NCBI GenBank assembly: GCA_964540055.1
Contig: CAZILC010000002.1
Coordinates: forward strand, 5,663-69,662
Reading direction: 5' to 3'
Origin: an uncultured Gammaproteobacteria bacterium
GTDB taxonomy: Bacteria > Patescibacteriota > Microgenomatia > Levybacterales > UBA12049
DNA length: 64,000 nucleotides
Shown piece after piece: positions 4,776 through 53,378 of the stretch (position 1 is its first letter; the number at the start of each line of letters is the position of its first letter). Under the pieces are notes generated by a model. That model saw only the letters and a program-made list of their open reading frames with translations, did not search any database and had not been told where the DNA came from. Made by a program: the position numbers and the translations under genes.

Positions 4776-4781
4776 CAGGAA

Positions 4782-5910: not shown

Positions 5911-5916
5911 CTGTGT

Positions 5917-6549: not shown

Positions 6550-6552
6550 ATT

Positions 6553-7509: not shown

Positions 7510-7520
7510 AGAAAAACAAA

Positions 7521-7865: not shown

Positions 7866-7883
7866 GAGATGGGTCTAACTACT

Positions 7884-7911
7884 TTGTTTTCTATGAGAAT
7901 CACACTATAAT
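7884..7911 (+). promoter_or_regulatory. sigma70-like promoter of the GT2 gene
   Basis: TTGTTT, a 16-nt spacer, then TATAAT (7906-7911). The ATG at 7922 is 10 nt downstream. Confidence 0.35.
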
Positions 7912-7921
7912 AAAGAGGCTC

Positions 7922-10119: not shown

Positions 10120-10156
10120 AGTTTAGCTCATAAAGATAGGCAGATCTTTTACCTGC

Positions 10157-10184
10157 ATTGTATCAGGAAAATTTTAATTTGCAA
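10157..10184 (-). promoter_or_regulatory. sigma70-like promoter of orphan A
   Basis: On the minus strand: TTGCAA (10184-10179), a 16-nt spacer, then TACAAT (10162-10157), about 37 nt upstream of the ATG at 10119. Confidence 0.4.
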
Positions 10185-10195
10185 TAGATGAGGAA

Positions 10196-11080: not shown

Positions 11081-11083
11081 AAG

Positions 11084-30225: not shown

Positions 30226-30270
30226 CTCATGTGTTATAATCTCCACATAAAACATAAAATACAAAAATAA

Positions 30271-31536: not shown

Positions 31537-31602
31537 AATTCTAAAGCTAAATACTTGGTAAATGAAGCAAAATCTGTTACAATAGACTTGATAAATTCTC
31601 TA

Positions 31603-34593: not shown

Positions 34594-34596
34594 ATT

Positions 34597-35403: not shown

Positions 35404-35404
35404 T

Positions 35405-36121: not shown

Positions 36122-36169
36122 CTCTAAATTGGAATTTTTCTAGAAAATACGCTATAATAGAGCTATAGG

Positions 36170-37729
36170 ATGAGTAAAAAATACGCGCTCATTAGTGTAT
36201 CCGATAAAACAGCCCTTGTTCCTTTCGCGAAGAACATCCTCAAAGCAGGCTACGAAATTATCACCACAGGCGGCACGGCAAAAATTTTACAAGAAGCAAA
36301 ACTCAAATTCACACCCATTCAAGAAATTACCGGCAATCCGGAGAGTTTTGATGGCCGGATGAAAACGATTAGCTTTCAGATCGAATCCGCACTCCTCTAT
36401 GACCGCTCAAACCCCAAACATATAGCAGAAGCCAAGAAACTCAAAATCCCACAAATTGACATAGTCGTCTGCAATCTCTATCCCTTTGAAAAAACAGTTG
36501 CCGACAAAAAAGTGAAATTCAAAGATGCAATTGAAAATATCGATGTTGGCGGCCCGACAATGATTCGCGCAGCAGCAAAGAATAGTCTAATCGTTGTTGT
36601 AGACCCGAACGATTACGATGAAGTTTCAAAAGCTCTAAGCTCTCCTAATTTCCCCGATCCCATCAAACGCAGACTCCAATCCAAAGCTTTTGACCATCTC
36701 ACCTTTTACGACAGTCAAATCGCTTGGTATTTCAGATCACAATTGAAAGAAACTACTTTTCCTCAAGAAATCACTATTCCAGGACGTAAACTCATCGATC
36801 TTCGCTACGGAGAAAATCCTCATCAACAAGGAGCAGTTTATACCCGACCAAACGTACAAACCCCCTTTAACCAACTGACCAAACATTGGGGAAGGGATCT
36901 ATCACTTATCAATATCACAGATATCAATGCAGGACTAGATTCCGTCAGACTCTTCAAAGAACCTGCAGCTGTTGTCATCAAACATAACAACCCCTGTGGA
37001 ATTGCACTTGGGAAAAATGCAGCGGAGGCTCTTACCCGTGCAATCGAAGGTGATCCGGAGTCGGCGTTTGGTGGCATAGTTGTTCTGAACAAACCAATGG
37101 ATATGAAAGCTGCTAAAGTAATCAGTGGATTCAAAGATGCCACACGAGGTAATATGGATATCATTGCTGTGCCTGCTATCAAACCCGACGCGCTCGAATT
37201 CCTGCAAAAAGTCAGAAAATCAATGGGAATTTATTCTTTTGGTGAGATTCCAAATGCCATGGATGACTGGAATATCAAATCAATCGATGGCGGATTTGTT
37301 CTCCAGACAGCCGATGTGGACATCGACGATTCATTTAAACAATGGCAATTTGTTACCAAGAAAAAGCCAACAAAACAGCAACTTGAGCAAATGCAGATCG
37401 GCTGGAAATTTATTACCAAAATTAAATCCAATACAATTCTCGTCATGGACCCAACAATTCCGATGACAAGAGGTATTGGATCAGGGCAAACTTCCCGCAT
37501 CAGATCGTCAAGAATTGCGATTGAGCAAGCTGGTAAATTCAACAAAAACGGTATTCTTGTGAGTGACAGCTTTTTCCCGTTCCCCGATACTATTGAATTA
37601 GCAGCCAAAAACGGCATCGCTGCAATAGTTCAGCAAGGCGGCTCAATAAATGATAAACTTTCAATAGAAGCTGCCGATAAAGCCGGCATTCCGATGGTAT
37701 TCACCGGAAGACGAGCTTTTTGGCATTAA
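36170..37729 (+). CDS. purH: bifunctional AICAR transformylase / IMP cyclohydrolase
   Basis: 519 aa with the N-terminal MGS-like 'ALISVSDKT' and the C-terminus 'TGRRAFWH'. Confidence 0.93.
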   Translation: MSKKYALISVSDKTALVPFAKNILKAGYEIITTGGTAKILQEAKLKFTPIQEITGNPESFDGRMKTISFQIESALLYDRSNPKHIAEAKKLKIPQIDIVVCNLYPFEKTVADKKVKFKDAIENIDVGGPTMIRAAAKNSLIVVVDPNDYDEVSKALSSPNFPDPIKRRLQSKAFDHLTFYDSQIAWYFRSQLKETTFPQEITIPGRKLIDLRYGENPHQQGAVYTRPNVQTPFNQLTKHWGRDLSLINITDINAGLDSVRLFKEPAAVVIKHNNPCGIALGKNAAEALTRAIEGDPESAFGGIVVLNKPMDMKAAKVISGFKDATRGNMDIIAVPAIKPDALEFLQKVRKSMGIYSFGEIPNAMDDWNIKSIDGGFVLQTADVDIDDSFKQWQFVTKKKPTKQQLEQMQIGWKFITKIKSNTILVMDPTIPMTRGIGSGQTSRIRSSRIAIEQAGKFNKNGILVSDSFFPFPDTIELAAKNGIAAIVQQGGSINDKLSIEAADKAGIPMVFTGRRAFWH

Positions 37730-37745
37730 AATAAACTGAAGCGAA

Positions 37746-37812
37746 GTACAAAGTTTTTTTGAGGACGGATGTCTGAGCGAAGCGAGTTGCGCCCGCAAAA
37801 AAAATTTTGTAC
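37746..37812. repeat. imperfect long inverted repeat between purH and purB
   Basis: GTACAAAGTTTTTTT (37746-37760) and AAAAAAAATTTTGTAC (37797-37812) flank a 36-nt GC-rich centre. The flanks are partly complementary as well. Confidence 0.5.
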
Positions 37813-37827
37813 GCAGCGTAAGACAAA

Positions 37828-39219
37828 ATGAGTAAACAAAACTTTACAACTTACCAATCCCCCTTCACCTGGCGCTATGGCTCCGAAAAAATGCGCTTCA
37901 TCTGGTCAGAAGAAAATAAGTTCGCAACCATGCGCGGCATCTGGGTCGAACTTGCAACGGTACAAAAGGAATTAGGCCTCGTATCGCAGGCAGAACTGGA
38001 CGATCTGAAAAAATTCCAAAACGAAATCGACATCGAACGGATTCTGGAAATCGAAAAAGAAACCAAACATGACATCGTTGCGGCCATCAAAGAGTACGCA
38101 GAAAAAGCAAAAACAGGCGGCGGCAAAATTCATCTCGGTGCAACAAGCATGGATATCGTCGACAACACCGATTCTGTCAGGATAAAAGAATCACTCGGAA
38201 TAATAGAAAAACACCTCGAAGATATCCTCAAAACGTTTGCAAATCAAATTGAAAAATATGCAGAAACCACTTGCATGGCATATACACATTTACAACCTGC
38301 CGAACCCACAACTATCGGGTATCGACTCTCACTGTATGCACAAGATTTACTCGAAGATCTCACCTTTTTGCAATTTGTAAAACAGCACTACAAAGCAAAA
38401 GGTTTCAAAGGTGCTGTCGGAACGCAAGCTAGTTACACAAGTCTTTTGAATAATAACCAAACAGAAGAAATGGAACAAAAAGTAATGGCCAAACTTGGAC
38501 TTGAGCCTGTTTTAATTGCCAACCAAGTCGGTCCGCGAAAAGCAGATCTTTTTGTCGCCCAACTTCTCTCCTCAATCGCACAATCGCTCAACAAATTTGC
38601 ATTTGATGTCCGTCTTATGCAGTCCGCTGGACTTGGCGAATGGCAGGAACCATTCGGAGAAAAACAAGTCGGCTCAAGTGCCATGCCATTCAAAAAAAAT
38701 CCGAGAAAATCCGAACAAATTTGCTCACTCGCGCGATATGTAGAAAACCTCTCAGCCAACGCATGGGACAATGCATCACTCTCACTTCTTGAAAGAACCC
38801 TTGATGATAGCGCCAACAGACGAGTATATATTCCGGAAATGTTCCTGGCACTTGAAGACATTCTTATCTCAAGCAATCAGGTAATTTCAGGCCTCATCAT
38901 CCATCAGGGTCAGGTTGAAAATAATCTCAACAAATTCGCGCCATTCTCGGCAACTGAATTGGTAATTGTCGAAACCGTCAAAAAAGGCGCCAACCGCCAA
39001 GAAATGCATGAAGTATTACGAGAAATTTCAATGTCTGCCTGGAAAGAAGTCGCAGAAGCCAGAGCAAATCCAATGAAAGAACTCTTGCAGAAAAATGAAA
39101 CGATCAAAAAATATTTATCAATAGAAGAAGTAGAAAAACTAATGGATGTAGCATCTCACATCGGTACTGCCCCCGAGCGAGCAAAAAAACTCGCAGCAAC
39201 TATTAAACAACAAATATAA
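37828..39219 (+). CDS. purB: adenylosuccinate lyase
   Basis: 463 aa with the fumarate-lyase signature 'GSSAMPFKKNP'. Confidence 0.93.
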   Translation: MSKQNFTTYQSPFTWRYGSEKMRFIWSEENKFATMRGIWVELATVQKELGLVSQAELDDLKKFQNEIDIERILEIEKETKHDIVAAIKEYAEKAKTGGGKIHLGATSMDIVDNTDSVRIKESLGIIEKHLEDILKTFANQIEKYAETTCMAYTHLQPAEPTTIGYRLSLYAQDLLEDLTFLQFVKQHYKAKGFKGAVGTQASYTSLLNNNQTEEMEQKVMAKLGLEPVLIANQVGPRKADLFVAQLLSSIAQSLNKFAFDVRLMQSAGLGEWQEPFGEKQVGSSAMPFKKNPRKSEQICSLARYVENLSANAWDNASLSLLERTLDDSANRRVYIPEMFLALEDILISSNQVISGLIIHQGQVENNLNKFAPFSATELVIVETVKKGANRQEMHEVLREISMSAWKEVAEARANPMKELLQKNETIKKYLSIEEVEKLMDVASHIGTAPERAKKLAATIKQQI

Positions 39220-39221
39220 TT

Positions 39222-40349
39222 ATGAAGAACAGAATAGGTATCGTCGGCGGTGGACAGTTAGGGAAAATGATGGCACTTCCTGCAAAGAGTATGGGATTTA
39301 CTGTCACTGTCACTGACCCAACTCCAGGCTCACCTGCAGGACAATGCGTTGATCGTGAAATACTTGGCGGATACAGCGACGAAAAAGCAACACGAGAACT
39401 AGCAAAAGTTTCAGACTTCATAACCGTTGAAATAGAACACATCAATACAGACACTTTGGCAGATCTTGCCAAAAAGGGCATGCCCGTCAATCCATCTCCT
39501 AAAACAATTGAGATCATCAAAAATAAATTCGCCCAAAAAGAATTTCTCACCAAAGCTGGTATTCCCGTTGCTCCCTATATTGGAGTCGAAAACAAAGCAG
39601 ATATTCTTGCTGCCGCCAAAAAATTCGGCTATCCATTTCTTCTTAAAGCACGATTTGATGCCTATGATGGCCGCGGGAATGCATTGATCAAAACTACAAA
39701 AGATATCGATAAGGCTCTGGATAAATTTGGTGATCGCAAACTGTATGTTGAGCAATATGTTCCATTTGAAAAAGAGTTGGCAATCATGATCGCACGAGGC
39801 GGAAAAGGTGAAATCGTTCCTTATCCGGTCGTTGAAACGATTCATAAAAATAATATTCTTCATCTCTGTATTGCTCCTGCACGAGTTGATAAAAAAATTG
39901 CTGACAAAGCGAAAAATTTTGCGATAAAAACCATGGAGCACCTGCACGGAGCAGGAGTTTTTGGAATTGAAATGTTTCTTACCAAAGATCACAAAGTTCT
40001 CATCAACGAAATCGCGCCACGTGTTCATAACAGTGGGCACTACACAACAGAAGCATGTGCGACATCACAATTCGAACAACATATTCGTGCCATAACCGGC
40101 TTACCGCTTGGCAAACCCGATATGGTCGTCCCGGCAGCAGTTATGGTAAATATTCTGGGTGAGCGGCTTGGACCGGTTGATGTACAAGGAATGGATAAAG
40201 TGCTCGCGATTCCCGGGGCGTATGTGCATATTTATGGAAAAAAAGAAACAAAACCTGAAAGAAAAATGGGACATATTACCGTCATTGGTGATAAAATAGA
40301 AGATGTTATTAAAAAAGCAGAAAAAGCGAGAAAATTACTATCTATTTAA
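39222..40349 (+). CDS. purK: N5-carboxyaminoimidazole ribonucleotide synthase
   Basis: 375 aa ATP-grasp protein with '[13 protein letters not shown]', directly upstream of purE. Confidence 0.9.
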
Positions 40350-40350
40350 T

Positions 40351-40875
40351 ATGTACAAACCATTAGTCGGAATAATCATGGGCTCAGATTCGGATCTTCC
40401 TGTTATGCAGGAAGCTGCCAATCAATTGGATGAACTCGGCATTGCCTACGAAATAACAATAGTTTCTGCACATCGGACACCAAATCGAATGTATGAATAT
40501 GCGAAAAATGCAGTTGAAAACGGACTGCAAGTAATTATTGCAGGTGCTGGAGGTTCAGCACATTTACCGGGTATGACAGCCTCCATGACTACTCTTCCAG
40601 TCATTGGCGTACCGATAAAGACAAAAACTATGGACGGACTTGATTCGCTTCTCTCAATTGTTCAGATGCCTCCAGGAATTCCTGTTGCAACTGTAGCGGT
40701 TAATGGCGCAAAAAATGCCGGACTCCTCGCTGCAAAAATTATCGGTGCCGGAAATAAAGAAGTTCAGAACAAACTCAAAGATTATGCAGAGAATCTTCAA
40801 GACTCAGTGATGAAAAAAGTAGAGAAATTAGATGAGGTAGGATTTAAAAAATATCTTGAAGAGTACAAGAAATAA
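40351..40875 (+). CDS. purE: N5-CAIR mutase
   Basis: The start is at the ATG at 40351, 1 nt after the purK stop. Motifs '[14 protein letters not shown]' and '[10 protein letters not shown]'. Confidence 0.93.
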
Positions 40876-41850
40876 ATGATTCAATCCAAAACAATTATCG
40901 CCGCACTGCCCAACTCACTCGAAACTATTGATCTCCCACAACTTGGAAAGAAATACCAGGGCAAAGTCCGTGATTTTTATATTCTCAAAGACAAGCGAGT
41001 AACCATCACCACCGATAGGCAATCTGCTTTTGATGTCATTCTTGGTAATATTCCCTTCAAAGGCGCAGTGCTTAATCAACTCGCAGCATTCTGGTTTGAA
41101 AAAACAAAGAACATTGTCCCAAATCATCTTATCTCAGTACCCGACCCAAATGTATTGGTTTCAAAAAACTGTAAACCGATTCCGGTTGAGATGGTCGTTC
41201 GCGGCTATCTTTCGGGAGTGACCAAAACATCAGTTTGGTATTCATACGAAAAAGGAGAACGGACCATCTACGGAATGCAATTTCCTGATGGTATGAAAAA
41301 AAATCAAAAACTCCCAACGCCGATTATCACACCAACAACACACCCTGAAGCCGGAAGCAATTTACATGATGAACGTCTTACGCGAGATGAGATTATAAAA
41401 AGGAAAATCGTTGAAAAAAAACTGTATGAGCAGATGGAAAAAGTGGCTCTCGAACTTTTTTCTTTTGGGCAAAAATGGTGCGAAGCACATGGACTAATTC
41501 TCGTTGACACCAAATATGAATTTGGCCTCTATGATGGAAAACTTATGCTAATGGATGAAATTCACACACCCGATAGTTCACGTTTTTGGATAGAAAAAAC
41601 ATACAAAGATAGACTCAAACGCGGTCTCGAACCGGAAAATTTTGACAAAGAATTTTTAAGACTTTGGTATGCCAAACGCGGCTACACTGGTGACGGCAAG
41701 CCCCCAAAAATGACTAAAGAATTGGCAGTTGAACTCTCAAAACGCTATATCCAAACCTATGAAATGCTCAGTGGAAAAACGTTTAAACCTTTTCCCTATC
41801 CTATTGAAGATAGGATCAAACAGAACCTCAAAAAATCGGGTATACTCTAA
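40876..41850 (+). CDS. purC: SAICAR synthase
   Basis: 324 aa with 'GKVRDFY' and 'LILVDTKYEFG'. Confidence 0.9.
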   Translation: MIQSKTIIAALPNSLETIDLPQLGKKYQGKVRDFYILKDKRVTITTDRQSAFDVILGNIPFKGAVLNQLAAFWFEKTKNIVPNHLISVPDPNVLVSKNCKPIPVEMVVRGYLSGVTKTSVWYSYEKGERTIYGMQFPDGMKKNQKLPTPIITPTTHPEAGSNLHDERLTRDEIIKRKIVEKKLYEQMEKVALELFSFGQKWCEAHGLILVDTKYEFGLYDGKLMLMDEIHTPDSSRFWIEKTYKDRLKRGLEPENFDKEFLRLWYAKRGYTGDGKPPKMTKELAVELSKRYIQTYEMLSGKTFKPFPYPIEDRIKQNLKKSGIL

Positions 41851-41852
41851 TC

Positions 41853-42704
41853 ATGTCTCTTCTTAACAATTGGATTTTTCTTGCCATAATCGCAGGGCTT
41901 GCTTCAAATGCATTTAATTTCATAAACCGGTATTTATTAAAAGACGATGAAGACTCGACAGCTTATACATGGTTTTATGAAATCATGCGATTTTTTGTAT
42001 TTGCGCTCATTGCGATTGTTGACTGGAAGTTGGTAATAACTTCATACTCAGCCATCATCTTTTGGCTTTTGGGAGTTACCGAATGGATCGCTGCCTATTG
42101 GTATATGAAAATGCATGAACATGCACATCTTTCGATTTCATCGATCCTGTCCCGGACCAGACTAATCTGGGTGCCGATTCTTGCCTTCTTTATTATTCAC
42201 GAGAGTTTAAAAGTTACTGACTATATTGGTATCATAATCCTATTTGGTGGTTTATGTGTAGTTGTAAGTCCCAAAAAAATGATGATGGATAAAGGCGCAA
42301 CATATGCCAATCTTGCCGCAGTTATGATCGCATTTAATATTGTCCTGACCAAAATGATTCTTCCTTACGGATCAAATGCTGTAATTAATGCAGCAATGGC
42401 TTTGATTCCTGCATTGCTCTTTCCTTTTTTTATTCCTAACAGTACGGTGCGTTTGAAAAAAATATTTCACAATAATTTGAAAGTAAAACTACTCGCAATA
42501 GCAGTTAACGCAATTTCAATTTATGTTTTTACAGCAGCACTTCGTTTTGGCGATTCAGGAAAAGTCACTGCTGTTTATCAAGGGATGATAATTGTCTCAA
42601 TTCTTGCAGGGATTATTTTTCTTAAAGAACGCACTGATATCGGCAAAAAACTTATTGGAGCTGCGATTACAATAATCGGTGTTGTAGTTTTAAGCCTATA
42701 TTGA
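41853..42704 (+). CDS. EamA/DMT-family transporter
   Basis: 283 aa with about 10 TM segments in a duplicated 5+5 arrangement. It lies inside the pur operon. Confidence 0.78.
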   Translation: MSLLNNWIFLAIIAGLASNAFNFINRYLLKDDEDSTAYTWFYEIMRFFVFALIAIVDWKLVITSYSAIIFWLLGVTEWIAAYWYMKMHEHAHLSISSILSRTRLIWVPILAFFIIHESLKVTDYIGIIILFGGLCVVVSPKKMMMDKGATYANLAAVMIAFNIVLTKMILPYGSNAVINAAMALIPALLFPFFIPNSTVRLKKIFHNNLKVKLLAIAVNAISIYVFTAALRFGDSGKVTAVYQGMIIVSILAGIIFLKERTDIGKKLIGAAITIIGVVVLSLY

Positions 42705-42723
42705 TACAATAGGCTCACTCAGT

Positions 42724-43833
42724 ATGAAAAAACAAAAAATATCATATAAAGAATCAGGAGTAAATTACGAAGCAATGGACCCGATAAAAGTACTCGCACA
42801 GCTTCGCGCAAAAGCTACAGCAAATAACCTCAAACGCTTTGACTCCTTGGAAATCGCCGCGAGTCGTGGAGAATCGGCATATGTATGGGAAGAAAAAGAT
42901 ACCTACCGGGCATTTGTTGTTGAGGGACTTGGAACGAAAAATCTTGTCGCAGATGATACCCGCACATTCACGAAAAAAACTCATTATGAAGCCATCGCAC
43001 AGGATACTGTTGCAATGATTGTAAATGACCTTATCGTTGTTGGTGCTGACCCGCAAGTGGTAAATGCCTATTTTGCAGTTGGCAGCAGTGATTGGTTTTC
43101 AGATAATGAAAGAGCAACAGACCTCGTTGAAGGATGGGCAAAAGCATGTGATATGGCGGGCGCTGTCTGGGGAGGCGGCGAGACTCCTACCTTAAAAGGT
43201 GTAATTGAACCTGCAACAATTGATCTTGCCGGAAGCGCGATTGGTGTCATAAATCCAAAAAAACGACTAACGTTGGGAGAAAAATTAGAAGCAGGTGACG
43301 CAATTGTATTGATTGAATCAAGCGGAATTCATTCAAATGGTCTCACACTTGCACGCTCCATTGCATCCAAGCTTCCAGCTGGATACAAAACCAAACTTCC
43401 AGACGGCACAAGTTATGGAGAATCCATCCTCGCTCCTACACATATTTATGCCAAACTCGTAAACGACGCGTTTGCTTCAGGTATTGCTATCCACTATATG
43501 GCAAATATCACCGGTCACGGCTGGCGAAAAATTATGCGAGCGAGCAAAGAATTTACCTACCGCATGACAGCAGTTCCTCAAGTACAACCTATTTTTCAAT
43601 TTATTCAAGAGCACTCAGGCAATGATGATCAAGAAATGTACGGTAACTTCAATATGGGTGCAGGTTTTGCATTCTTTATCAATAAAAAAGATATCAAAAA
43701 GTTGCTAAACGTTGCAAAGGATAATAACTATCAAGCATGGCACGCGGGAAATGTTGAAAAAGGAGAAAAACAAGTCATTATCGAACCACTGGACATATTC
43801 TTCAAAGGAGAAACACTCCAAGTCAAAGCATAA
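42724..43833 (+). CDS. purM: AIR synthase (phosphoribosylformylglycinamidine cyclo-ligase)
   Basis: 369 aa with 'YKESGVNYEAMD', 'DLIVVGADP' and 'GNFNMGAGF'. Confidence 0.85.
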   Translation: MKKQKISYKESGVNYEAMDPIKVLAQLRAKATANNLKRFDSLEIAASRGESAYVWEEKDTYRAFVVEGLGTKNLVADDTRTFTKKTHYEAIAQDTVAMIVNDLIVVGADPQVVNAYFAVGSSDWFSDNERATDLVEGWAKACDMAGAVWGGGETPTLKGVIEPATIDLAGSAIGVINPKKRLTLGEKLEAGDAIVLIESSGIHSNGLTLARSIASKLPAGYKTKLPDGTSYGESILAPTHIYAKLVNDAFASGIAIHYMANITGHGWRKIMRASKEFTYRMTAVPQVQPIFQFIQEHSGNDDQEMYGNFNMGAGFAFFINKKDIKKLLNVAKDNNYQAWHAGNVEKGEKQVIIEPLDIFFKGETLQVKA

Positions 43834-45863: not shown

Positions 45864-47807
45864 ATGATTACCTTTCAGCGTCACCCCGAAAATCCGATAT
45901 TAGTACCAAACCCTGACCATGAATGGGAGCATGATGGGGCGTTTAATGGCTGTGTTGCCTATAACGACGGTACGTATCATATGGTCTACCGTGCGTTATC
46001 TTCAGAGAAACGGCAAAACGGAGTCAGTCTTCGTGTTTCAACCGTTGGTTACGCACAAAGTAAAGATGGAGTACATTTTACCGATCAAAGACAGCTTTTC
46101 GGTCCGACGGAAGATTGGGAAGTGTATGGAGTTGAAGATCCGCGTATCACCTTCTTTAAAGGCAAATTTTATATTTATTACACTGCGCTTTCTAACTACC
46201 CTTTTAGTGCTTATGGGATAAAAACTGCTGTTGCAATTACCGAAGATTTCCAAACATTTCACAAACATCCGGTCAGTACGTTCAACGCAAAAGCAATGGC
46301 ACTTTTTCCTGATCTCATAAAAGGAAAAATGGGAGCGCTGATTACCATGAACACTGACCTGCCTCCTGCAAAAATCGGAGTCGCCTATTTTGACCGGGAA
46401 GAAGATATGTGGTCACCGTATTATTGGGATGAGTTTTACGAAAATTCAGGATCACACGTAATCCATCTGCTCCGTGACATGCGAGATCAGGTAGAGCTCG
46501 GCGCTGCTCCGATTAAAACAAAGGACGGCTGGCTTTTTATTTATTCATATATTACGGATTACATGTCAAACGAGAAAAAATTTGGTATCGAAGCAGTGCT
46601 ACTGGATCTTGATCATCCACGTCATGTCATTGGCAGGACAAAAGATTCACTCCTTACACCGCAAGCTGATTACGAATTACGAGGAGATGTTCCAAATGTT
46701 ATTTTTCCATCCGGCGCTCTTATTAAAGATGATGATTTCTACCTATATTATGGTGCTGCAGATACTCGAGTAGCGCTGGCCACGTGCAAAATAAAAGATT
46801 TACTTGATGAAATAAGACCAAAAGCAGAAACTCCGATAGCGCGTATTGAAAGTGAGAATAACAAACTTGTCAGGTTTTCTGGTAACCCGATTCTCACACC
46901 AATTATCGAATGGGATTGGCAATCACGGGCGGTATTTAATCCCGCGGCAATTTATGAAGACGGTAAAGTACATCTCATTTATCGTGCATTGTCACAGGAT
47001 GGAATTTCTGTATTGGGATATGCAGTAAGTAACGATGGATTGCATATTGATGAAAACCTTGATTATCCAATTTATGTGCCCCGTGAAGATTTTGAAAAAA
47101 GAAGAAGACCTGATGTGGGTGGAGGATGTGAAGATCCAAGAATTACTGAATTTCAGGACAGGTTTTATATGACCTATACTGCATGGGATGGTGTCAGTCC
47201 GCCCCGTGTTGCACTCACATCAATCAGCGTTGAAGATTTTTTGAGAAGACAGTGGAACTGGGAAAAACCAATTCTCATTTCTTTGCCTAACGTTGACGAT
47301 AAAGATGCCTGTATCTTAAAAAACAGATATGGAAAATATATTGTATTTCACCGGTTGGGCAGTGAAATCTGGATCGATGTAAAAGATCGTATGGATTTTG
47401 GCGAAGATAAATTCCTTGGCGGAAAAGAAGTCGCGCTTCCAAGACCTGATAAATGGGACAATGTCAAGCTTGGCATATCTGCTCCTCCAATTGAAACAGA
47501 ACATGGATTTGTACTTCTCTATCACGGTGTTTCAGAACCTGGATTTAAATACAAAGTCGGCGCGATGCTTCTTGATGATGAGGATCCGACAAAAGTCCTT
47601 GCTCGCACCAATGAACCATTATTTGAGCCTGAGACACCTTATGAAATCGAAGGTGAAGTTCCCAATGTCGTCTTCCCTTGCGGTGCACTGGTAATCAAAG
47701 ATGATTTGTATGTGTATTATGGAGGAGCTGATAAAGTGATTGGGGTAGCAACTATGAAGTTCCAAGATCTCATTGATCAACTTTTGAAAATCAAAAATAA
47801 TGGATAG
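45864..47807 (+). CDS. tandem GH130-family glycoside phosphorylase/hydrolase (two complete domains)
   Basis: Domain 1 has 'HPENPILVPNPDHEWEHDGAFNG', 'GVEDPRIT' and 'YYGAADT'. Domain 2 has 'GNPILTPIIEWDWQSRAVFNPAA', 'GCEDPRIT' and 'YYGGADK'. Confidence 0.85.
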   Translation: MITFQRHPENPILVPNPDHEWEHDGAFNGCVAYNDGTYHMVYRALSSEKRQNGVSLRVSTVGYAQSKDGVHFTDQRQLFGPTEDWEVYGVEDPRITFFKGKFYIYYTALSNYPFSAYGIKTAVAITEDFQTFHKHPVSTFNAKAMALFPDLIKGKMGALITMNTDLPPAKIGVAYFDREEDMWSPYYWDEFYENSGSHVIHLLRDMRDQVELGAAPIKTKDGWLFIYSYITDYMSNEKKFGIEAVLLDLDHPRHVIGRTKDSLLTPQADYELRGDVPNVIFPSGALIKDDDFYLYYGAADTRVALATCKIKDLLDEIRPKAETPIARIESENNKLVRFSGNPILTPIIEWDWQSRAVFNPAAIYEDGKVHLIYRALSQDGISVLGYAVSNDGLHIDENLDYPIYVPREDFEKRRRPDVGGGCEDPRITEFQDRFYMTYTAWDGVSPPRVALTSISVEDFLRRQWNWEKPILISLPNVDDKDACILKNRYGKYIVFHRLGSEIWIDVKDRMDFGEDKFLGGKEVALPRPDKWDNVKLGISAPPIETEHGFVLLYHGVSEPGFKYKVGAMLLDDEDPTKVLARTNEPLFEPETPYEIEGEVPNVVFPCGALVIKDDLYVYYGGADKVIGVATMKFQDLIDQLLKIKNNG

Positions 47808-47819: not shown

Positions 47820-48500
47820 CTAAACTTCTGGCGTTGCGGCTAATCTGAAGATTTCAGCAAACATAAATGGAAAATCTTGAGTAGACGCCGGAGTACTCTC
47901 AACTCCCTCAACATTGTCTGGAATAATAGGATTTTCTTGTCCCACATGTCCTCGGGTTACAACCACAAGGTTTTCACTAGCATCACGACGCAATTCCATT
48001 CTAATTCTAGCATCATCTTTTGGAGATATTGATGTGCGGCGTCCATGAGCCGGTGTTTCATGCCCTCTCACCAGAGCAACGGCCACTAAAGGAGTATATG
48101 TCATACGCCCGCTTTTGTATTCGGGACCACTTCTATCTAAAGCAGCCAAAATTTCCTCTTCCTTTCTTTCTACAAGTCCTAATAATTTCCTTCTCTCTCC
48201 TCTTACAAGCAGTTCATCAGGCAGGTGCTGAGATCTTGCACGAAAAACTAATCGAGGACCATCATTGGCAGCTCCTTCATAAGCATATACGGCTTGTGCA
48301 CTAATATGCCTACCTTTAGCCTCAACTCGATTATTCATTTGGAATACGCCGGCATCTCGCCTCCAGTCACCGAGAAATGTGCCTATGGCTGCAACACCGG
48401 TCATAACGAGTGATGGTGATGCAGATCGTTGATATCTCGAAATGGCACCAGCCATACGATTGATCAATATTTCGGTAGGATGCTCAGGAGTTCTTGCCAT
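47820..48500 (-). CDS. hypothetical protein (orphan H)
   Basis: 226-aa ORF, R/G/A/E-rich, with no TM segment. A near-consensus promoter lies directly upstream. I recognise no family. Confidence 0.55.
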   Translation of the reverse strand: MARTPEHPTEILINRMAGAISRYQRSASPSLVMTGVAAIGTFLGDWRRDAGVFQMNNRVEAKGRHISAQAVYAYEGAANDGPRLVFRARSQHLPDELLVRGERRKLLGLVERKEEEILAALDRSGPEYKSGRMTYTPLVAVALVRGHETPAHGRRTSISPKDDARIRMELRRDASENLVVVTRGHVGQENPIIPDNVEGVESTPASTQDFPFMFAEIFRLAATPEV

Positions 48501-48508: not shown

Positions 48509-48536
48509 ATTATAAGCTTTACTAATAATATGTCAA
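48509..48536 (-). promoter_or_regulatory. near-consensus sigma70 promoter of orphan H (leaderless geometry)
   Basis: On the minus strand: TTGACA (48536-48531), a 16-nt spacer, TATAAT (48514-48509), 8 nt, then the ATG at 48500. Confidence 0.55.
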
Positions 48537-48543: not shown

Positions 48544-49098
48544 TTATAAGGGTTTACGGCGAAGCTTAAAAAGATATCCTACAAATGTTGTTAATGGATG
48601 AAGCAGTGACCACACGATAAATAAAATAATATATTCAACAACAGGCAACCTAATATAAAGCAGACTAAACGCAACTCCGCCTACTATATAGTCAATCTGA
48701 TCAAATGGAAACCAGCTTCTTCCTGGCTGAATATTTTTCTGGCGTTTGAAAAAACTTTTTGCCGAATCACCGAATAATGCACCAAATCCCAAAAGGCCGC
48801 CTAAAATAAAAGGATTTATTTCAGAATAGTTCACATAAACCAATTGTCTTACACTAGTAAAATTAGCATAAAACCAAACCTCAAGTGCACAAATAACAAT
48901 ACCGATCACAATTGCTGCTGCAAATCCGCGAAATGTTTTATGATTTCCCAGAATTCTTTTTCCTTTATATTTTTTAAAACAATCAACCGGATAGTTATAT
49001 TTTTTTAAAAATCCAATCTTTCCTGCAGCAAAAGCCCCTAGATTTGCAAATCCAGCCGGGGCAAAGAACCATAGAGAAAAGAAGATTGCGTGAAACAT
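48544..49098 (-). CDS. CDP-archaeol synthase (CarS, DUF46)-like CTP:lipid cytidylyltransferase
   Basis: 184 aa with about 5 TM segments. 'FFAPAGFANLGAF', 'GKRILGNHKTFRGF', 'GALFGDSAKSFFKRQ' and 'PFDQIDY' follow the CarS-family motif order as I recall it. Confidence 0.72.
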   Translation of the reverse strand: MFHAIFFSLWFFAPAGFANLGAFAAGKIGFLKKYNYPVDCFKKYKGKRILGNHKTFRGFAAAIVIGIVICALEVWFYANFTSVRQLVYVNYSEINPFILGGLLGFGALFGDSAKSFFKRQKNIQPGRSWFPFDQIDYIVGGVAFSLLYIRLPVVEYIILFIVWSLLHPLTTFVGYLFKLRRKPL

Positions 49099-49159
49099 AC
49101 GTTATGAATGATTCAATTATACAATTTTTAACTATACCTAGCTTGAATTTGTATATAAA

Positions 49160-50071
49160 CTAGATAAAAAACGGTAAGTACATTTGATCGATTTGCTTGG
49201 TGTCATTTCGCAAAAATGTGACTTGTTTTGGCATAATTTCAATCTCGACTCTCTCCCGTTGCAACACCGGATCTCCATCAATTTGTACATACGGCTCGCC
49301 CTCTATTCGAATATGTTTTGCTTTAAACCTGACCTTCCCAAGTTCCGAATAGAGTGGGTGTTTAAAACCTTTCAGTCTAAGATTGGTAATATAAGCATAT
49401 TTTGTTGAAAACAATGTGCAATCCAATACTCCATCATTCAATTTAGCGTTGGGTGAAACTATGTAATTTTGTCCGATTACCGGACAATTTGCAACGACCA
49501 GCGAGGATGCCCGAGCATTTAATGTCACACTTTTATCAATCGTCAGCGTTATTTCCTGTTCGGGATGAGAAACAAAACTTCGAAGTCCAGACAAAACATA
49601 GGAACGAAATCCTATATATTTATAATGCTGTCTGTTAAATACAATTCGCGCATCAAATCCCGCACTCACACTAAAAACACCTATACTGTGTCCCGGAAGA
49701 TTGGTTTTGAGTAAATCAACTGTTATTGTATAATCCTGTTTTTTAATAACTGCAAGAGCCTTTTCTATTGTTTCCACTCCTAGGCAATACGAAAGTGCAT
49801 TTCCAAAGCCAAATGGAAGTATTGTGAGGAGAGGTTTTTTTGTCATTTTTGAAATCACCCTGCATACTGCATTGATCGTGCCATCACCACCTGCAATTAC
49901 AATTAATTTTGGCTTGTGTTGTTTAATAATGTCTTCTAATGATACTGTTGTAATATCAATCGGATTTTTTGGAAGAGAGTTGTTTCGTTTACGGGCTACC
50001 TGCCATAATTTCATCGCGGTTCCTTCATTTGATTTGGGATTTAACACATACAAAATATCATCAGCAGACAT
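49160..50071 (-). CDS. diacylglycerol-kinase-family lipid kinase (YegS/DagK-like)
   Basis: 303 aa with 'LIVIAGGDGTINAV' and 'LPFGFGNAL'. Confidence 0.85.
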   Translation of the reverse strand: MSADDILYVLNPKSNEGTAMKLWQVARKRNNSLPKNPIDITTVSLEDIIKQHKPKLIVIAGGDGTINAVCRVISKMTKKPLLTILPFGFGNALSYCLGVETIEKALAVIKKQDYTITVDLLKTNLPGHSIGVFSVSAGFDARIVFNRQHYKYIGFRSYVLSGLRSFVSHPEQEITLTIDKSVTLNARASSLVVANCPVIGQNYIVSPNAKLNDGVLDCTLFSTKYAYITNLRLKGFKHPLYSELGKVRFKAKHIRIEGEPYVQIDGDPVLQRERVEIEIMPKQVTFLRNDTKQIDQMYLPFFI

Positions 50072-50073
50072 AG

Positions 50074-50745
50074 TTAATTTTCTCCAAATAATACAACACT
50101 ATTTTTTATGCGGTTAATCATTGGATATAAAAAGGTATATAAGGGCGCGTAATTTTTTTCTAATAGCGCAGTTGTTAAAAGATGCTTTAATGTTTGCTCT
50201 GTGGGAAAATCCGATACATTGCTAGTGCCAAATCCCAGTCCCCGACATCCATGAGCATCACTACTGGCAGCTTGCGCAATAGTATTTGCTTGAGCAAATT
50301 TGAGTGCTAATTTTTGCTTACCTCTGAATCGTCCACGTCCGTTAAAAACTTCAATAATATCGATATCCTTTGCAATTCTGTTTACTGCTGATAATTTCAA
50401 ACCTTTTCTCAATTTTTCAAATGGATGAGGAATATAGACAAGACCACCCTGATATTTAATACTCGCGATCGCTTCATCAAGATCAATACCACCCGGTACT
50501 GTCTCTTTGAGATACAAACCGATAATCTCACCATCAGTCGTTTCTATCTCTTCGCCAATTATTATTCTTTCCCCTAATTTTTTTTGTAAAATCCTCGCGA
50601 AACTGGTTTCATTATGATCAGTAATTGCAATACAATCCAACTCTCCTGACTGAAGAACTTTTTCATACTGCGCGACAGTAATGCCTCCATCTTGTGATAT
50701 GATAGAGTGGGTATGAAGATCAATTCTGTAACGCGAACCTTTCAT
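50074..50745 (-). CDS. PHP-domain phosphoesterase
   Basis: 223 aa with 'IDLHTHSIISQDG' and 'AITDHNE'. Confidence 0.85.
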   Translation of the reverse strand: MKGSRYRIDLHTHSIISQDGGITVAQYEKVLQSGELDCIAITDHNETSFARILQKKLGERIIIGEEIETTDGEIIGLYLKETVPGGIDLDEAIASIKYQGGLVYIPHPFEKLRKGLKLSAVNRIAKDIDIIEVFNGRGRFRGKQKLALKFAQANTIAQAASSDAHGCRGLGFGTSNVSDFPTEQTLKHLLTTALLEKNYAPLYTFLYPMINRIKNSVVLFGEN

Positions 50746-50753
50746 ATTTCCTT

Positions 50754-51341
50754 ATGTTGAGCAAACAAAAATCTTCAATAGAACCATATCTGGAGCCACT
50801 GGTAAAAAGTCTGGCAAACGTTCCTCCCAACACCCTTACGCTACTAGGAAGTATACCACCTATCCTATTTTTTGTCTTTATGCTCTCTCACTGGTATATC
50901 CTTGCTCTTATTGCACTTATCGGAAATGGATTTGATATGTTGGATGGAATGGTTGCCAGAAAATATCACAAGGTAACAAATTTTGGTGGATTTTTGGATT
51001 CGACGATGGATAGAATTGCTGATTTTCTTATCATTACTGCATTTGCTTTTTCGGGGATTGTGAGTTGGGTAATTGTCGCGCCATTTCTCCTTTTCGCATA
51101 TTTGACAAGTTATGTGAGAAGTCGAGGGGAACTGGCGAATCCCAATGTGAGTTTTGCAATAGGACTTATTGAAAGATCAGAACGCCTCATATTAATCTTT
51201 ATTGCATTACTTATTTATATACTTTTCCCCACAATAAATTTCTTCGGTTTCAATATCGCCGAAGTGTCATTTATTTTTCTTTCTCTCGTATCACTGTATA
51301 CAGTGATACAGCGAATTGCTCACGCCTACAACAAATTATAA
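50754..51341 (+). CDS. CDP-alcohol phosphatidyltransferase (probable inositol-phosphate-lipid synthase)
   Basis: 195 aa with the complete motif D-x2-DG-x2-AR-x8-G-x3-D-x3-D in 'FDMLDGMVARKYHKVTNFGGFLDSTMDRIAD'. It lies next to MIPS. Confidence 0.88.
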   Translation: MLSKQKSSIEPYLEPLVKSLANVPPNTLTLLGSIPPILFFVFMLSHWYILALIALIGNGFDMLDGMVARKYHKVTNFGGFLDSTMDRIADFLIITAFAFSGIVSWVIVAPFLLFAYLTSYVRSRGELANPNVSFAIGLIERSERLILIFIALLIYILFPTINFFGFNIAEVSFIFLSLVSLYTVIQRIAHAYNKL

Positions 51342-51358
51342 ACAGCCACGTTGACAAA

Positions 51359-52453
51359 TTATTTTGAAGAATATCGCTCAATAAAATCTTCAACTTTTTC
51401 TCTTGCTATTGCATCGGTAAACTGCACGGGTGGGGATTTCATGAAATAAGATGAAGGTTCGATAAGCGGTCCGCCCAATTTATTGTCCAGTGCAAGCTTA
51501 CAACATCTGAGTGCGTCAATAACGACACCTGCTGAGTTAGGAGAATCCTGAACTGACAATCGTGCCTCAATATGCATCGGCACATCACCAAAATGACGAC
51601 TTTCAATTCTGATAAATGCAACCTTGTTATCTTTAAGCCATGGCACCCAATCACTTGGTCCAATATGCACATCCTCCGGCGCAATATCTTTATCATGAAG
51701 ATCTATTTGAGAAGTAACAGCCCGGGTTTTAGAAATTTCTTTTGATGTGAGTCGTCGACGCTCAAGCATATTTTGAAAATCCGTGTTCCCCCCCACATTA
51801 AGCTGGTATGTGTGATCAATCGGCATCCCCCGATCCAAAAAGAGGTTTGCTAATACCCGATGCACAATTGTCGCGCCGACTTGAGATTTGATATCGTCAC
51901 CGACAATCGGAACCCCAGCATCAATAAATTTTTTCCTCCACGTTGGATCTGATGCGATAAATACCGGCAAACAATTTACCATTCCGACCTTTGCTTTCAA
52001 ACAAACATCCGCCCAGTATTCAACAGCTTTTTGACTTCCAACTGGTAAATAACAAATCAGTACATCTGCTTTTACTTTTTTTAAAATCTCAACCGGATCA
52101 GGTATAGACTGTTTTGCGGGTTTGACCAAATCCTGCACATATTCACCGATTCCATCCAGTACTGGTGAATTTTGAACGATAACTCCTAATTTGGGCACTT
52201 TTGCAAAAACGACGGTATTATTTGGTTTTGCGTAAATTGCCTCTGCTACATCTTTTCCTACTTTGGTTACATTAACGTCAAAAGCCGCAACTACTTCAAT
52301 ATCCGAAATCGAATACCCACCAAGAACGGGATGCATGAGTCCTACTATGGAATCATTTTTCGTTGCGTCTTTGTAATAAGTTAATCCCTGCACCAAAGAT
52401 GATGCACAATTTCCAATTCCAACAATTGCTATTTTTATTTTTTTCTCAGACAT
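51359..52453 (-). CDS. ino1: myo-inositol-1-phosphate synthase
   Basis: '[16 protein letters not shown]' and the overall length are typical of prokaryotic MIPS. The start is moved to the Met at 52453. Confidence 0.9.
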
Positions 52454-52523
52454 AAAAGCAAAGAATACCAGAATAAATTCCATTTGTAAAATTAATCAAT
52501 TTTATGATATATTAATATTTCTT

Positions 52524-53378
52524 ATGATTGAAGAATTACGTAGATTTCTAGAAATGGCAAAAACTGGCAATGTAACCAGAGCCGCACAACATCTTTATAT
52601 AACACAATCAGCGTTAACTCAATCAATCCATCGTTTGGAAAAAGAATTACAGACCAAACTTTTCTCACAAAAAGGCAAACAATTATTTCTCACTCAAGAT
52701 GGAAAATCCTTAATTATAATTGGAGAAAAAATACTTCAATTGTGGACGAACGCGCATGACCCGTATATGCGCACCGTTCAATTACCTACGTTTACTGTTG
52801 GGATGTTTGATAATGTCGCTCTTCGCTTGAGTAAATTCTTAAAAAATAATTTGCAGAATGATAGATATCATCTCGAACTGATTATTGAATCATCGAGCAA
52901 ATTATTGACCAGGCTACAGTTGGGAACTGTTGATGCAGTACTATGTATTTTTAATGACACATATCAAATCCCAAGTCATGTTACACTTTTACATGAGTAT
53001 TCTGAAAATCTTATTCCTGTCTCTTCCCAAAACTTTAAGAATACATCAATAGAAAAAATTCCTTTTATCCTCTATAACAAAGATTCTTATACAAGAACTT
53101 ATATCGATGAAGAATTTATTAATCATGGAATACAACCTACTATTTATGTTGAATCAACAAGTGTTACTTTTATGAGAGAACTTGCATTACTCGGAAGCGG
53201 TGTAGCATTATTGCCGGAAAATTTTGTAAAACAAGATCTAGAGCAGGACAGACTGAAGAAAATAAAAATGCCAATGCGTTGGACAAGAAAGTATGGATTC
53301 TTTGTCCAAAAACAATATAGTCCTCAAATACCTTTTGTTAAAGATTTGCAAATTGCAATTAAAAATTACTTGTGTTAA
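52524..53378 (+). CDS. LysR-family transcriptional regulator
   Basis: 284 aa with the N-terminal wHTH '[25 protein letters not shown]'. Confidence 0.9.

Follow-up and report, generated by a model that had tools for sequence, protein, structure and literature searches.

A putative inositol-phospholipid pathway with a CarS-family enzyme in a Patescibacteria bacterium

[quoted passage not shown] This reading is based on protein families, folds, conserved catalytic and inositol-phosphate-binding residues and the conserved adjacency of three of the genes; all substrate assignments, and the acyl rather than isoprenoid nature of the lipid, are putative. With its entry at DAG, the pathway would be the bacterial equivalent of the DAG-PA-CDP-DAG-PI cycle of eukaryotes. 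A bacterial branch of the CDP-archaeol-synthase family and a candidate PHP phosphatase would stand in it where textbook bacteria use other enzymes.

Gene arrangement and encoded families

The region consists of five contiguous genes, beside which lies a regulator gene:

48544..49098, minus strand: CarS-like CTP:lipid-phosphate cytidylyltransferase, 184 aa, five predicted TM helices; proposed CDP-diacylglycerol (CDP-lipid) synthase
49160..50071, minus strand: soluble YegS/BmrU/DgkB-family lipid kinase, 303 aa; proposed diacylglycerol kinase supplying phosphatidate to the CarS-like enzyme
50074..50745, minus strand: soluble PHP-fold metal-dependent phosphoesterase, 223 aa; putative phosphatidylinositol-phosphate phosphatase
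50754..51341, plus strand: polytopic CDP-alcohol phosphatidyltransferase of the inositol-phosphate (AIP/PIP synthase) type, 195 aa
[quoted passage not shown]
52524..53378, plus strand: LysR-family regulator, divergent from MIPS, with PF00126 and PF03466 matches

All five ORFs were found at these coordinates. The families and contiguity proposed in an earlier, sequence-only reading of this DNA agreed with the ORFs and with the Pfam and fold matches, and every motif quoted there was present in the translations. For MIPS, the internal ATG (52453, at '[12 protein letters not shown]') is a likelier start than the ORF end at 52483. On the minus strand the PHP, kinase and CarS-like genes follow one another closely, 2 bp (PHP/kinase) and 61 bp (kinase/CarS-like) apart. 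The starts of the divergent transferase and PHP genes are separated by 8 bp, and the stops of the convergent transferase and MIPS genes by 17 bp; the five genes are contiguous, yet with the transferase on the plus strand they are not one operon. This opposite orientation in the window counts against the proposed pathway. The window also carries genes for the complete purine pathway and for making nucleotide sugars, and since this window alone holds them, the small genome assumed in the sequence-only reading is unproven.

The transferase matched PF01066 (64.1 bits, E 2.5e-17) and carries the full D-x2-D-G-x2-A-R-x8-G-x3-D-x3-D motif (D61...D86). Among NCBIfam models it scored 158.5 with AIPS (cut-off 180), 99 with PIPS (cut-off 170), 39.9 with DIPPS and 38 with PgsA; the BT-type PIPS model gave 36.5 bits. 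Its best PDB match was the M. tuberculosis PIP synthase MtPIPS (6H53, 43.6 bits). [quoted passage not shown] Both arginines and the whole CAPT motif were invariant in 60/60 transferases adjoining CarS-like genes. Therefore a phosphorylated acceptor is expected, and hence both MIPS and a phosphatase would be needed. Because the arginines are kept throughout and the AIPS and PIPS models score best, identity as a DIPP synthase was rejected, in line with the lipid-type enzyme that had been proposed. Even divergent Saccharibacterial transferases still scored with AIPS/PIPS (82-108 bits), with PgsA at 25 bits or less.

MIPS matched PF01658 (120 bits, E 5e-35) and, over its full length, M. tuberculosis Ino1 (1GR0, 434 bits), and is thus of the actinobacterial type; its score with TIGR03450 was 486, under the cut-off of 638. 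The kinase matched PF00781 (DAGK_cat; 56.8 bits, E 2e-15) and PF19279 (YegS_C; 51.5 bits, E 1e-13), and TIGR00147 at 83.6, under the cut-off of 118.65. Its best PDB matches were the B. anthracis DAG kinase/BmrU entries 3S40 and 3T5P (54 bits), followed by YegS and DgkB, and no TM segment was predicted in it. None of the NCBIfam equivalog cut-offs was reached, which counts against the proposed pathway.

Conservation of the neighbourhood

Synteny was compared across 80 genome loci, 58 of them labelled Patescibacteria; 66 were assessable, having 2.5 kb or more of sequence upstream of the CarS-like gene. The transferase lay within 4 kb of the CarS-like gene in 62/66 and the PHP gene adjoined it in 55/66, and both were present, completing the trio, in 54/66. 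In Saccharibacteria all three trio genes share a strand and are arranged head to tail. The kinase was found between the PHP and CarS-like genes in 16 of the 66 loci, mostly of the Levyibacteriota type, and MIPS within about 10 kb of the CarS-like gene in only five. The conserved unit is therefore the trio of transferase, PHP and CarS-like genes, and the kinase, MIPS and divergent LysR are a Levyibacteriota-type extension of it; the co-conservation expected in the sequence-only reading held for the trio and not for the five-gene form, which is lineage-specific. In most Saccharibacterial loci MIPS is not near the trio, and this counts against the proposed pathway. A LysR homologue adjoins MIPS in four loci (L003, L006, L007 and L013), an arrangement suggesting that the regulator probably controls MIPS and the inositol branch.

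No cdsA, pls, fab, GGGPS or UbiA-type genes were found within the 64-kb window, nor any CdsA signature in the 1.3 Mb of sequence searched. A canonical cdsA together with a full lipid pathway had also been named beforehand as contradicting the sequence-only reading; on this point the check covered the window. Fatty-acid synthesis is generally missing from Saccharibacteria (PMC10633639). Not every member of the phylum has the module, which counts against the proposed pathway: for S. epibionticum, a cultivated Saccharibacterium, the annotation tables contain no 'archaeol' entry and only one CDP-alcohol transferase, a non-essential one.

Proposed pathway and alternative readings

In the proposed pathway, the soluble YegS/DgkB-type kinase would convert DAG, which may be scavenged from a host or come from the cell's own lipid turnover, to PA. 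With CTP, the five-helix CarS-like enzyme would turn PA into the CDP-lipid, filling the role of CdsA in other bacteria. MIPS would form inositol-1-phosphate from glucose-6-phosphate, the AIP/PIP-synthase-type transferase would join it to the CDP-lipid to give PIP, and the PHP metallophosphoesterase would strip the head-group phosphate to yield PI.

The PHP protein scored 23.6 bits with PF02811, under the cut-off of 26.4, and 54.6 bits with CehA/McbA. Its fold was confirmed by an AF2 model (pLDDT 93.5) and Foldseek matches to 3E38, 7UG9 (RNase AM), 2ANU, 3O0F and 2YB1. H11, H13, D19, H44, E65, H107, D163 and H165 were invariant in 66 homologues, so that all metal ligands are kept. The only known bacterial PIP phosphatase, BT_1525, belongs to the PgpA family, unrelated to PHP, and the mycobacterial one was not yet known at that time (bioRxiv 2021.04.26.441525). 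The pathway leaves exactly one phosphatase step without an assigned enzyme, which was counted for the PHP protein; it would then be a non-orthologous PIP phosphatase and a new candidate lipid phosphatase.

It is also conceivable, if rather unlikely, that the pathway runs as proposed and the PHP protein acts elsewhere: as a phosphodiesterase stripping head groups from scavenged phospholipids to give DAG or PA, or as a nucleotide/pyrophosphate-type phosphatase removing by-products, with PIP as the end product or dephosphorylated by another enzyme. Diesterases and nucleotide phosphatases both occur among PHP enzymes, and the nearest folds that have been characterised, RNase AM and Cv1693 (2YB1, solved with AMP and phosphate bound), have nucleotides or RNA rather than lipids as substrates. 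The order PHP-kinase-CarS in the window would parallel a route from phospholipid through DAG and PA to CDP-lipid. However, the PHP gene lies between the transferase and CarS-like genes without a kinase in 40/66 loci, a poor fit to a phospholipase C, and it co-occurs with the very transferase whose use of inositol phosphate leaves a phosphatase step. Moreover, no signal peptide or TM segment that would point to extracellular action on host lipid was predicted in it.

The CarS-like protein matched PF01864 over its full length (87.9 bits, E 1e-24; cut-off 22) and PF01148 (CdsA) only weakly (22.6, under the cut-off of 24), so that membership in the CarS family rather than CdsA, as first read, was upheld. 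Lack of such a match, like a DIPP-synthase grouping, had been named beforehand as contradicting that reading, and neither was found. The solved CarS structure 5GUF, the only one available, was the sole match both in a PDB sequence search and, at significant level, in Foldseek (TM 0.60/0.69; AF2 model pLDDT 89). Twenty-five positions are invariant in both its clade and archaeal CarS, including N19, D39, R48, K54, T55, D111, K118, R119, D133, Q134 and H167, and none of the polar residues that archaeal CarS proteins conserve is lost. In a tree, the large bacterial, mostly Patescibacteria-labelled clade was fully apart from the sampled archaeal CarS (bootstrap 100/100). A loop insertion and a signature of W-F-P-F, R57 and Y137 set this clade apart; W-F-P-F adjoins the catalytic D-Q, where archaea have A-P-L-L, which is compatible with a changed lipid specificity and proves nothing. 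The label 'archaeal-type' was therefore an overstatement; the protein also scored only 117 with the NCBIfam CarS equivalog, against a cut-off of 148. Nor are CarS and CdsA unrelated, as had been stated; both belong, though distantly related, to a single CTP-transferase superfamily (PMC9385802). The first interpretation was thus supported in part: in the families, the lipid-type transferase and co-conservation.

Rather than an acyl lipid, the substrate might be an archaeal-type, isoprenoid one that the cell makes itself or obtains from an archaeal host. The CarS-like enzyme would then have an archaetidic-acid-like (geranylgeranyl) lipid phosphate as its substrate, and archaetidylinositol phosphate would be the product of the AIPS-like transferase. 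For both membrane enzymes archaeal models indeed score best, and GGGPS/DGGGPS homologues were reported in one Parcubacteria genome (PMC7852524). The characterised CarS of A. fulgidus has a strong preference for DGGGP over phosphatidate and failed to complement a cdsA mutant of E. coli (PMC9385802), so a diacyl substrate here would require altered specificity. Against an isoprenoid substrate stand the separate clade, the DAG/lipid-kinase family of the adjacent kinase and the actinobacterial type of MIPS. Neither the window nor the conserved neighbours hold a GGGPS, UbiA-type DGGGPS, mevalonate or polyprenyl-synthase gene, whereas archaeal CarS genes (three genomes) adjoin mevalonate-pathway genes and not a transferase or PHP gene. 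Archaeal AIP synthase takes bacterial substrates well (Morii et al. 2014, as given in a review, PMC9385802), and therefore AIPS-likeness says little on the lipid tail. An isoprenoid substrate is accordingly considered improbable.

Alternatively, the CarS-like protein might not be a cytidylyltransferase and would be a CTP-dependent lipid kinase of the same superfamily, like dolichol and phytol kinases, or the synteny might be coincidental, with no shared pathway. The CTP-transferase superfamily does include CTP-dependent polyprenol kinases, and the equivalog thresholds were missed, but the match to the CarS structure alone, the retained CarS residues and a neighbouring transferase that needs a CDP-activated donor speak against it, and chance is hard to uphold across very divergent lineages with CarS-like identities down to 38%. 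Either reading is considered very improbable.

Comparison with known systems

A lipid-salvage route to PI is not new in general. For the Saccharibacterium 'T. rhizospherense' it was predicted in 2018 that, without fatty-acid synthesis, scavenged phosphatidate is converted by a 'putative phosphatidate cytidylyltransferase' to CDP-DAG and on to PI and PIMs (Starr et al. 2018, PMC6031116). This is the same scavenging idea, at annotation level and for one genome; the CarS-family identity, the transferase-PHP-CarS module, the PIP intermediate and phosphatase, and the kinase/MIPS/LysR extension are not part of it.

The mycobacterial/actinobacterial PI pathway (Ino1, CdsA, PgsA1 as PIP synthase, PIP phosphatase) uses the same chemistry, from inositol-1-phosphate and CDP-lipid through PIP to PI, and shares with the window a closely similar MIPS and, in the transferase, the CAPT motif and R155/R195 site. 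The window differs in its CarS-family activating enzyme instead of CdsA, its transferase scoring higher on the archaeal AIPS model, a PHP protein in the phosphatase position, the clustering of the genes and the inclusion of a DAG-kinase-type gene. The Bacteroides thetaiotaomicron cluster BT_1522-BT_1526 (Heaver et al.; bioRxiv 2021.04.26.441525) likewise combines MIPS, PIP synthase and PIP phosphatase with a PIP intermediate; however, its phosphatase is of the PgpA family where the window has a PHP fold, and it lacks a CTP-transferase and lipid kinase and has an extra inositol-phosphoceramide synthase.

With archaeal CarS and archaetidylinositol-phosphate synthase the window shares the two membrane enzyme families, including the CarS fold and polar active-site residues and AIPS as top NCBIfam model, and differs in its separate clade, signature and loop insertion, the clustering with transferase and PHP genes, not seen in the three archaea compared, and the probably acyl substrate. 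The eukaryotic PI cycle (DAG kinase, CDP-DAG synthase, PI synthase) follows the same logic from DAG to PI, with a soluble DAGK_cat-family kinase at entry. In the window the cytidylyltransferase belongs to another subfamily, all steps lie side by side, and the acceptor would be inositol phosphate rather than free inositol, hence an extra phosphatase step.

Gene layout of the cluster and identity of the CarS-like protein

All five open reading frames of the cluster were found where the sequence-only reading had placed them, and every motif that it quoted was present in the translations. [quoted passage not shown]

Genes of the cluster (window coordinates, strand, product, supporting match)
48544-49098, minus strand, CarS-like protein (PF01864)
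49160-50071, minus strand, lipid kinase (PF00781 and PF19279)
50074-50745, minus strand, PHP protein (PHP fold from model)
50754-51341, plus strand, CDP-alcohol phosphatidyltransferase (PF01066)
51359-52483, minus strand, MIPS (PF01658; likelier start 52453)

The transferase gene lies on the strand opposite to the rest, with 8 bp between its start and that of the divergent PHP gene and 17 bp between its stop and that of the convergent MIPS gene. The only same-strand run is formed by the PHP, kinase and CarS-like genes, spaced 2 and 61 bp apart. In the Pfam search, the CarS-like protein, the kinase, the transferase and MIPS all scored well above the cut-offs of their families.

The CarS-like protein matched PF01864 over its full length (87.9 bits, cut-off 22; residues 2-180 of 184), whereas the match to the CdsA family PF01148 covered residues 53-123 only and stayed below its cut-off (22.6 against 24 bits), which places the protein in the CarS family, as had been proposed. 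The AF2 model (pLDDT 89.1) showed five long helices, corresponding to the five-helix CarS fold. The structure of A. pernix CarS (5GUF) was both the sole sequence match in the PDB and the sole Foldseek match of the model at E<=0.001 (TM 0.60/0.69, 28% identity), and no CdsA structures were present among the Foldseek matches. The pattern H-G-G-x-D-R-x-D, which we take to be the C-terminal CdsA signature, was not found in the window or in the fetched genome loci.

When 41 bacterial and 43 archaeal sequences were aligned, 25 positions were conserved to 90% or more in each group, including every conserved polar residue (N19, D39, R48, K54, T55, D111, K118, R119, D133, Q134 and H167 in the CarS-like protein). 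These polar residues putatively form the CTP/Mg2+/K+ cavity, and since they are kept, the protein likely has a working CTP-transferase site. In a neighbor-joining tree, with an archaeal sample biased towards Thermoproteota, the bacterial and archaeal sequences were split in 100/100 bootstraps, with a mean between-group distance of 1.63 compared to within-group distances of 0.77 and 0.90. A position inside archaeal CarS was thus not borne out. Beside the catalytic D-Q the bacterial sequences carry W-F-P-F, where archaea have A-P-L-L, and they also have R57 in place of an archaeal E, Y137 in place of an archaeal F, and an extra loop. Because of this signature and loop, the split in the tree and a score below the NCBI equivalog cut-off for CarS (NF003114, 117.2 against 148 bits), the protein is, judged by its sequence, not a typical archaeal CarS. 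Of the archaeal character assigned to it in the sequence-only reading, the family match stands; the separate clade and the missed cut-off make it weaker than stated. The same reading had called CarS and CdsA unrelated, which is wrong, since both are distant members of a single superfamily (PMC9385802).

Distribution and conserved gene neighborhood

In the protein database, 778 relatives of the CarS-like protein were identified. For synteny, 80 loci were fetched out of 170 confirmed in a collection of species-representative genomes. According to their deposited labels, 58 of the 80 belong to Patescibacteria (45 Saccharibacteria, 9 Levyibacteriota and 4 from other groups), and seven bear other labels. 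The latter loci (L009, L062, L012, L003, L010, L055 and L073), labelled Limnocylindrales, Ktedonobacteraceae or 'uncultured Gammaproteobacteria', represent either mislabelled metagenome-assembled genomes or occurrence of the module outside the radiation.

Gene content was counted, using HMMs built from the cluster proteins, at the 66 loci whose sequence extended 2.5 kb or more beyond the CarS-like gene on its upstream side. A CDP-alcohol transferase was located within 4 kb of the CarS-like gene at 62/66 loci and a PHP gene was present at 55/66, both together at 54/66. The kinase gene was found at 16 loci, and MIPS lay within about 10 kb of the CarS-like gene at only five. In the commonest arrangement (40/66 loci), transferase, PHP and CarS-like genes follow one another, in most cases on the same strand and head to tail. 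The arrangement in the window, with the transferase on the opposite strand, the PHP-kinase-CarS run, MIPS, a divergent LysR gene and GH130 genes, recurs at the fetched loci L003 and L006 and partly at L002, L007 and L013, and is therefore a Levyibacteriota-type form. Thus, the true conserved unit is the trio of transferase, PHP and CarS-like genes. The five-gene unit put forward from the sequence alone holds for this co-conserved trio, while its full form is a lineage-specific extension. Complete genomes with the module include OY970292.1, OY970327.1 and OZ246406.1. It does not occur throughout the phylum, however: for S. epibionticum, a cultivated Saccharibacterium, the annotation tables list no 'archaeol' entry and only one CDP-alcohol transferase, which is non-essential.

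Neither a transferase nor a PHP gene neighbored CarS at three archaeal loci (Pyrolobus, a Methanobacteriaceae metagenome-assembled genome and Methanosuratincola). In contrast to the bacterial trio, mevalonate-pathway genes adjoin CarS in two of these three: in Pyrolobus fumarii and Methanosuratincola (L083 151-3011, L085 1-2014) CarS lies ~2-3 kb from AcnX-type and UbiD-type genes, presumably members of the archaeal mevalonate pathway. Transfer of an archaeal CarS-AIPS-PHP operon en bloc, in which the transferase would be an archaetidylinositol-phosphate synthase (AIPS), is unsupported by these loci and by the tree, where the bacterial sequences do not nest within the small, Thermoproteota-biased archaeal sample.

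Predicted functions of the transferase, kinase, MIPS and PHP protein

The transferase scored 64.1 bits with PF01066 and contains the CAPT motif D-x2-D-G-x2-A-R-x8-G-x3-D-x3-D (D61, D64, G65, A68, R69, G78, D82, D86); in 60 CarS-adjacent transferases its Asp and both Gly positions do not vary, and A68 and R69 are almost invariant. Among the NCBIfam models, the protein scored highest with AIPS (NF040950, 158.5 bits), followed by phosphatidylinositol-phosphate synthase (PIPS; NF045883, 99), di-myo-inositol-phosphate synthase (DIPPS; NF041135, 39.9) and PgsA (38.4), remaining below the equivalog cut-offs of AIPS (180) and PIPS (170). Among PDB structures, M. tuberculosis PIPS ranked first (43.6 bits), ahead of DIPPS (4MND, 24.9) and PgsA (19.5). 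R144 and R187 of the transferase align with R155 and R195 of M. tuberculosis PIPS, the two arginines that contact the phosphate group when inositol phosphate is bound (PMC4634129), and their equivalents are invariant in 60/60 CarS-adjacent transferases, including the divergent Saccharibacterial type. The model and PDB rankings and the conserved arginines argue that the transferase is a lipid inositol-phosphate synthase, the product of which would carry a phosphate and require a phosphatase.

Two other readings of the transferase were ruled out. Synthesis of soluble di-myo-inositol-phosphate via CDP-inositol, the alternative raised in the sequence-only reading, is contradicted by a DIPPS score far from the cut-off of 580 and by the lower rank of 4MND; no NTP-transferase (inositol-1-phosphate cytidylyltransferase) gene is present in the cluster, and by model scores, PDB ranking and arginines the enzyme groups with the lipid synthases. 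Phosphatidylglycerol synthesis by the trio in Saccharibacteria, with the PHP protein as PGP phosphatase, was rejected because even the divergent Saccharibacterial transferases score higher with AIPS/PIPS (82-108 bits) than with PgsA (25 bits or less) and both inositol-phosphate arginines are kept.

The kinase exceeded the Pfam cut-offs for PF00781 (56.8 bits) and PF19279 (51.5 bits), contains the 'GGDGT' motif and scored 83.6 with TIGR00147, below the cut-off of 118.65. Its best PDB matches were the B. anthracis DAG kinase/BmrU, YegS and DgkB, and it is predicted to be a lipid kinase of the YegS/BmrU/DgkB family. MIPS scored 120.3 bits with PF01658 and matched M. tuberculosis Ino1 (1GR0) over its full length (433.8 bits, residues 4-358); with TIGR03450 it reached 486, below the mycothiol-specific cut-off of that model (638).

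By sequence, the PHP protein stayed below threshold for PF02811 (23.6 against 26.4) and PF13263 (19.8 against 21.3). Its structural model (pLDDT 93.5) gave PHP proteins only as best PDB matches, and the barrel was assigned with Foldseek probability 1.00 to 3E38, 7UG9, 2ANU, 3O0F and 2YB1. The closest folds were 3E38 and 2ANU, both uncharacterised, RNase AM and the BAD_1165/Cv1693 proteins, and the structure of Cv1693 (2YB1) was solved with bound AMP and phosphate. The putative His/Asp/Glu metal ligands (H11, H13, D19, H44, E65, H107, D163, H165) are invariant in 66 homologues. The protein is soluble, and a conserved C-terminal helix has its highest amphipathic moment, which is moderate only (µH 0.43).

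[quoted passage not shown] Bacteroides uses a PgpA-family enzyme, whereas in the window a PHP fold would act at this step.

Proposed lipid route and surrounding genes

Judged from family, conserved residues and synteny, the kinase would convert diacylglycerol (DAG) to phosphatidate (PA), the CarS-like enzyme would form the CDP-lipid from PA and CTP, MIPS would produce inositol-1-phosphate from glucose-6-phosphate, the transferase would combine both to PIP, and the PHP protein would release PI. DAG might be scavenged or be supplied by lipid turnover within the cell, and with the second source the gene set parallels the eukaryotic DAG-PA-CDP-DAG-PI cycle. By this route, the cluster would encode bacterial PI synthesis via a PIP intermediate, known in its pathway logic, with two non-orthologous enzyme replacements acting on the predicted substrates.

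The main weakness of this route is tail specificity, as characterised archaeal CarS prefers unsaturated archaetidic acid (DGGGP) and cannot replace E. coli CdsA (PMC9385802). Acyl tails are nevertheless favoured, though not proven, because isoprenoid-ether lipid genes were not found in the window or among the conserved neighbors, the neighboring kinase belongs to the DAG-kinase type and MIPS to the actinobacterial type, and CarS-like and archaeal proteins fall into separate clades. No cdsA, pls or fab genes were found in the window or in 1.3 Mb of loci, which is a weak test of genome-wide absence. It is tentatively proposed, as a possibility somewhat short of probable, that in much of the Patescibacteria a bacterial branch of the CarS family fulfils the CdsA role on fatty-acyl PA and, together with a hitherto unrecognised PHP-type PIP phosphatase, re-heads scavenged or recycled lipid. 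If so, a three-gene module would let bacteria unable to make fatty acids form an inositol phospholipid, and the CarS/CdsA split would not follow the archaeal/bacterial lipid divide.

For one Saccharibacterium, a route from scavenged lipid via CDP-DAG to PI and PIMs was predicted earlier (Starr et al., 2018; PMC6031116), CarS was not treated by Coleman et al. (2019), and some of these genes already bear the label 'CDP-archaeol synthase' from the NCBI and JGI pipelines. In the searchable literature, no description was found of the activating enzyme of these bacteria as a CarS-family member, of transferase, PHP and CarS-like genes as a conserved module, of a PIP phosphatase of the PHP type, or of the extension by kinase, MIPS and LysR genes. 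Neither a link between CarS and Patescibacterial lipids nor one between PHP domains and PIP dephosphorylation was found in the open-access literature, and a search for lipidomics of Saccharibacteria gave irrelevant matches only.

Bacteria of the candidate phyla radiation account for a large part of bacterial diversity and largely lack fatty-acid and phospholipid synthesis. The cluster would offer a short, testable answer to how their membranes are built and individualised: it comprises three to five small genes, expressible in E. coli, from which inositol lipids are predicted as a hallmark of such cells. Further gains would be a CarS-family enzyme in a bacterial lipid context, informing tail specificity across the lipid divide, and a candidate for a phosphatase step so far pinned only to the PgpA-family enzyme of Bacteroides. 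The transferase-PHP-CarS trio could serve as a genomic marker for annotating thousands of metagenome-assembled genomes.

Other features of the window (coordinates, strand where assigned, description)
56-12034, nucleotide-sugar/cell-envelope gene block
28087-43833, plus strand, near-complete de novo purine operon, beginning with a purF-purN fusion of 712 aa
44007-45845 and 45864-47807, plus strand, tandem GH130 proteins of 612 and 647 aa, two GH130 matches each
47820-48500, minus strand, orphan open reading frame of 226 aa
55283-56137, minus strand, Cof-type HAD phosphatase (PF08282, 94.7 bits; weak S6PP match)

No rRNA, tRNA or Rfam matches were found in the window. The orphan frame, between the CarS-like and GH130 genes, had no Pfam, NCBIfam or PHROGs match and formed a singleton cluster in a collection of 15 billion proteins; four further unassigned frames likewise had no PHROGs match. 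The orphan frame is preceded by a promoter-like site (48536..48509, perfect TTGACA-16-TATAAT) and has a GC content of about 45% compared to 33-39% in the flanks. The closest relatives, L002 and L003, lack it, and their CarS-like gene directly abuts GH130. It looks like a recent insertion.

The GH130 proteins belong to the beta-mannoside phosphorylase family, with beta-1,2-mannobiose phosphorylase as best NCBIfam model, and a homologue adjoining the CarS-like gene is kept at L002, L003, L004 and L006; these enzymes might conceivably be connected with mannosylated inositol lipids. The HAD phosphatase, two genes past the LysR regulator, is an alternative candidate for a sugar-phosphate or inositol-phosphate phosphatase. 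In the envelope block, a GDP-mannose-4,6-dehydratase-like protein, dTDP-rhamnose enzymes, UDP-glucose dehydrogenase, a NUDIX protein and five GT2 glycosyltransferases are encoded. The purine operon has the order purF-purN, purD, purL, purQ, GATase, purH, purB, purK, purE, purC, EamA transporter and purM, a capacity unusual for a Patescibacteria-like genome. With this operon, the dTDP-rhamnose/UDP-sugar genes and several GT2 enzymes, the organism is therefore not obviously minimal.
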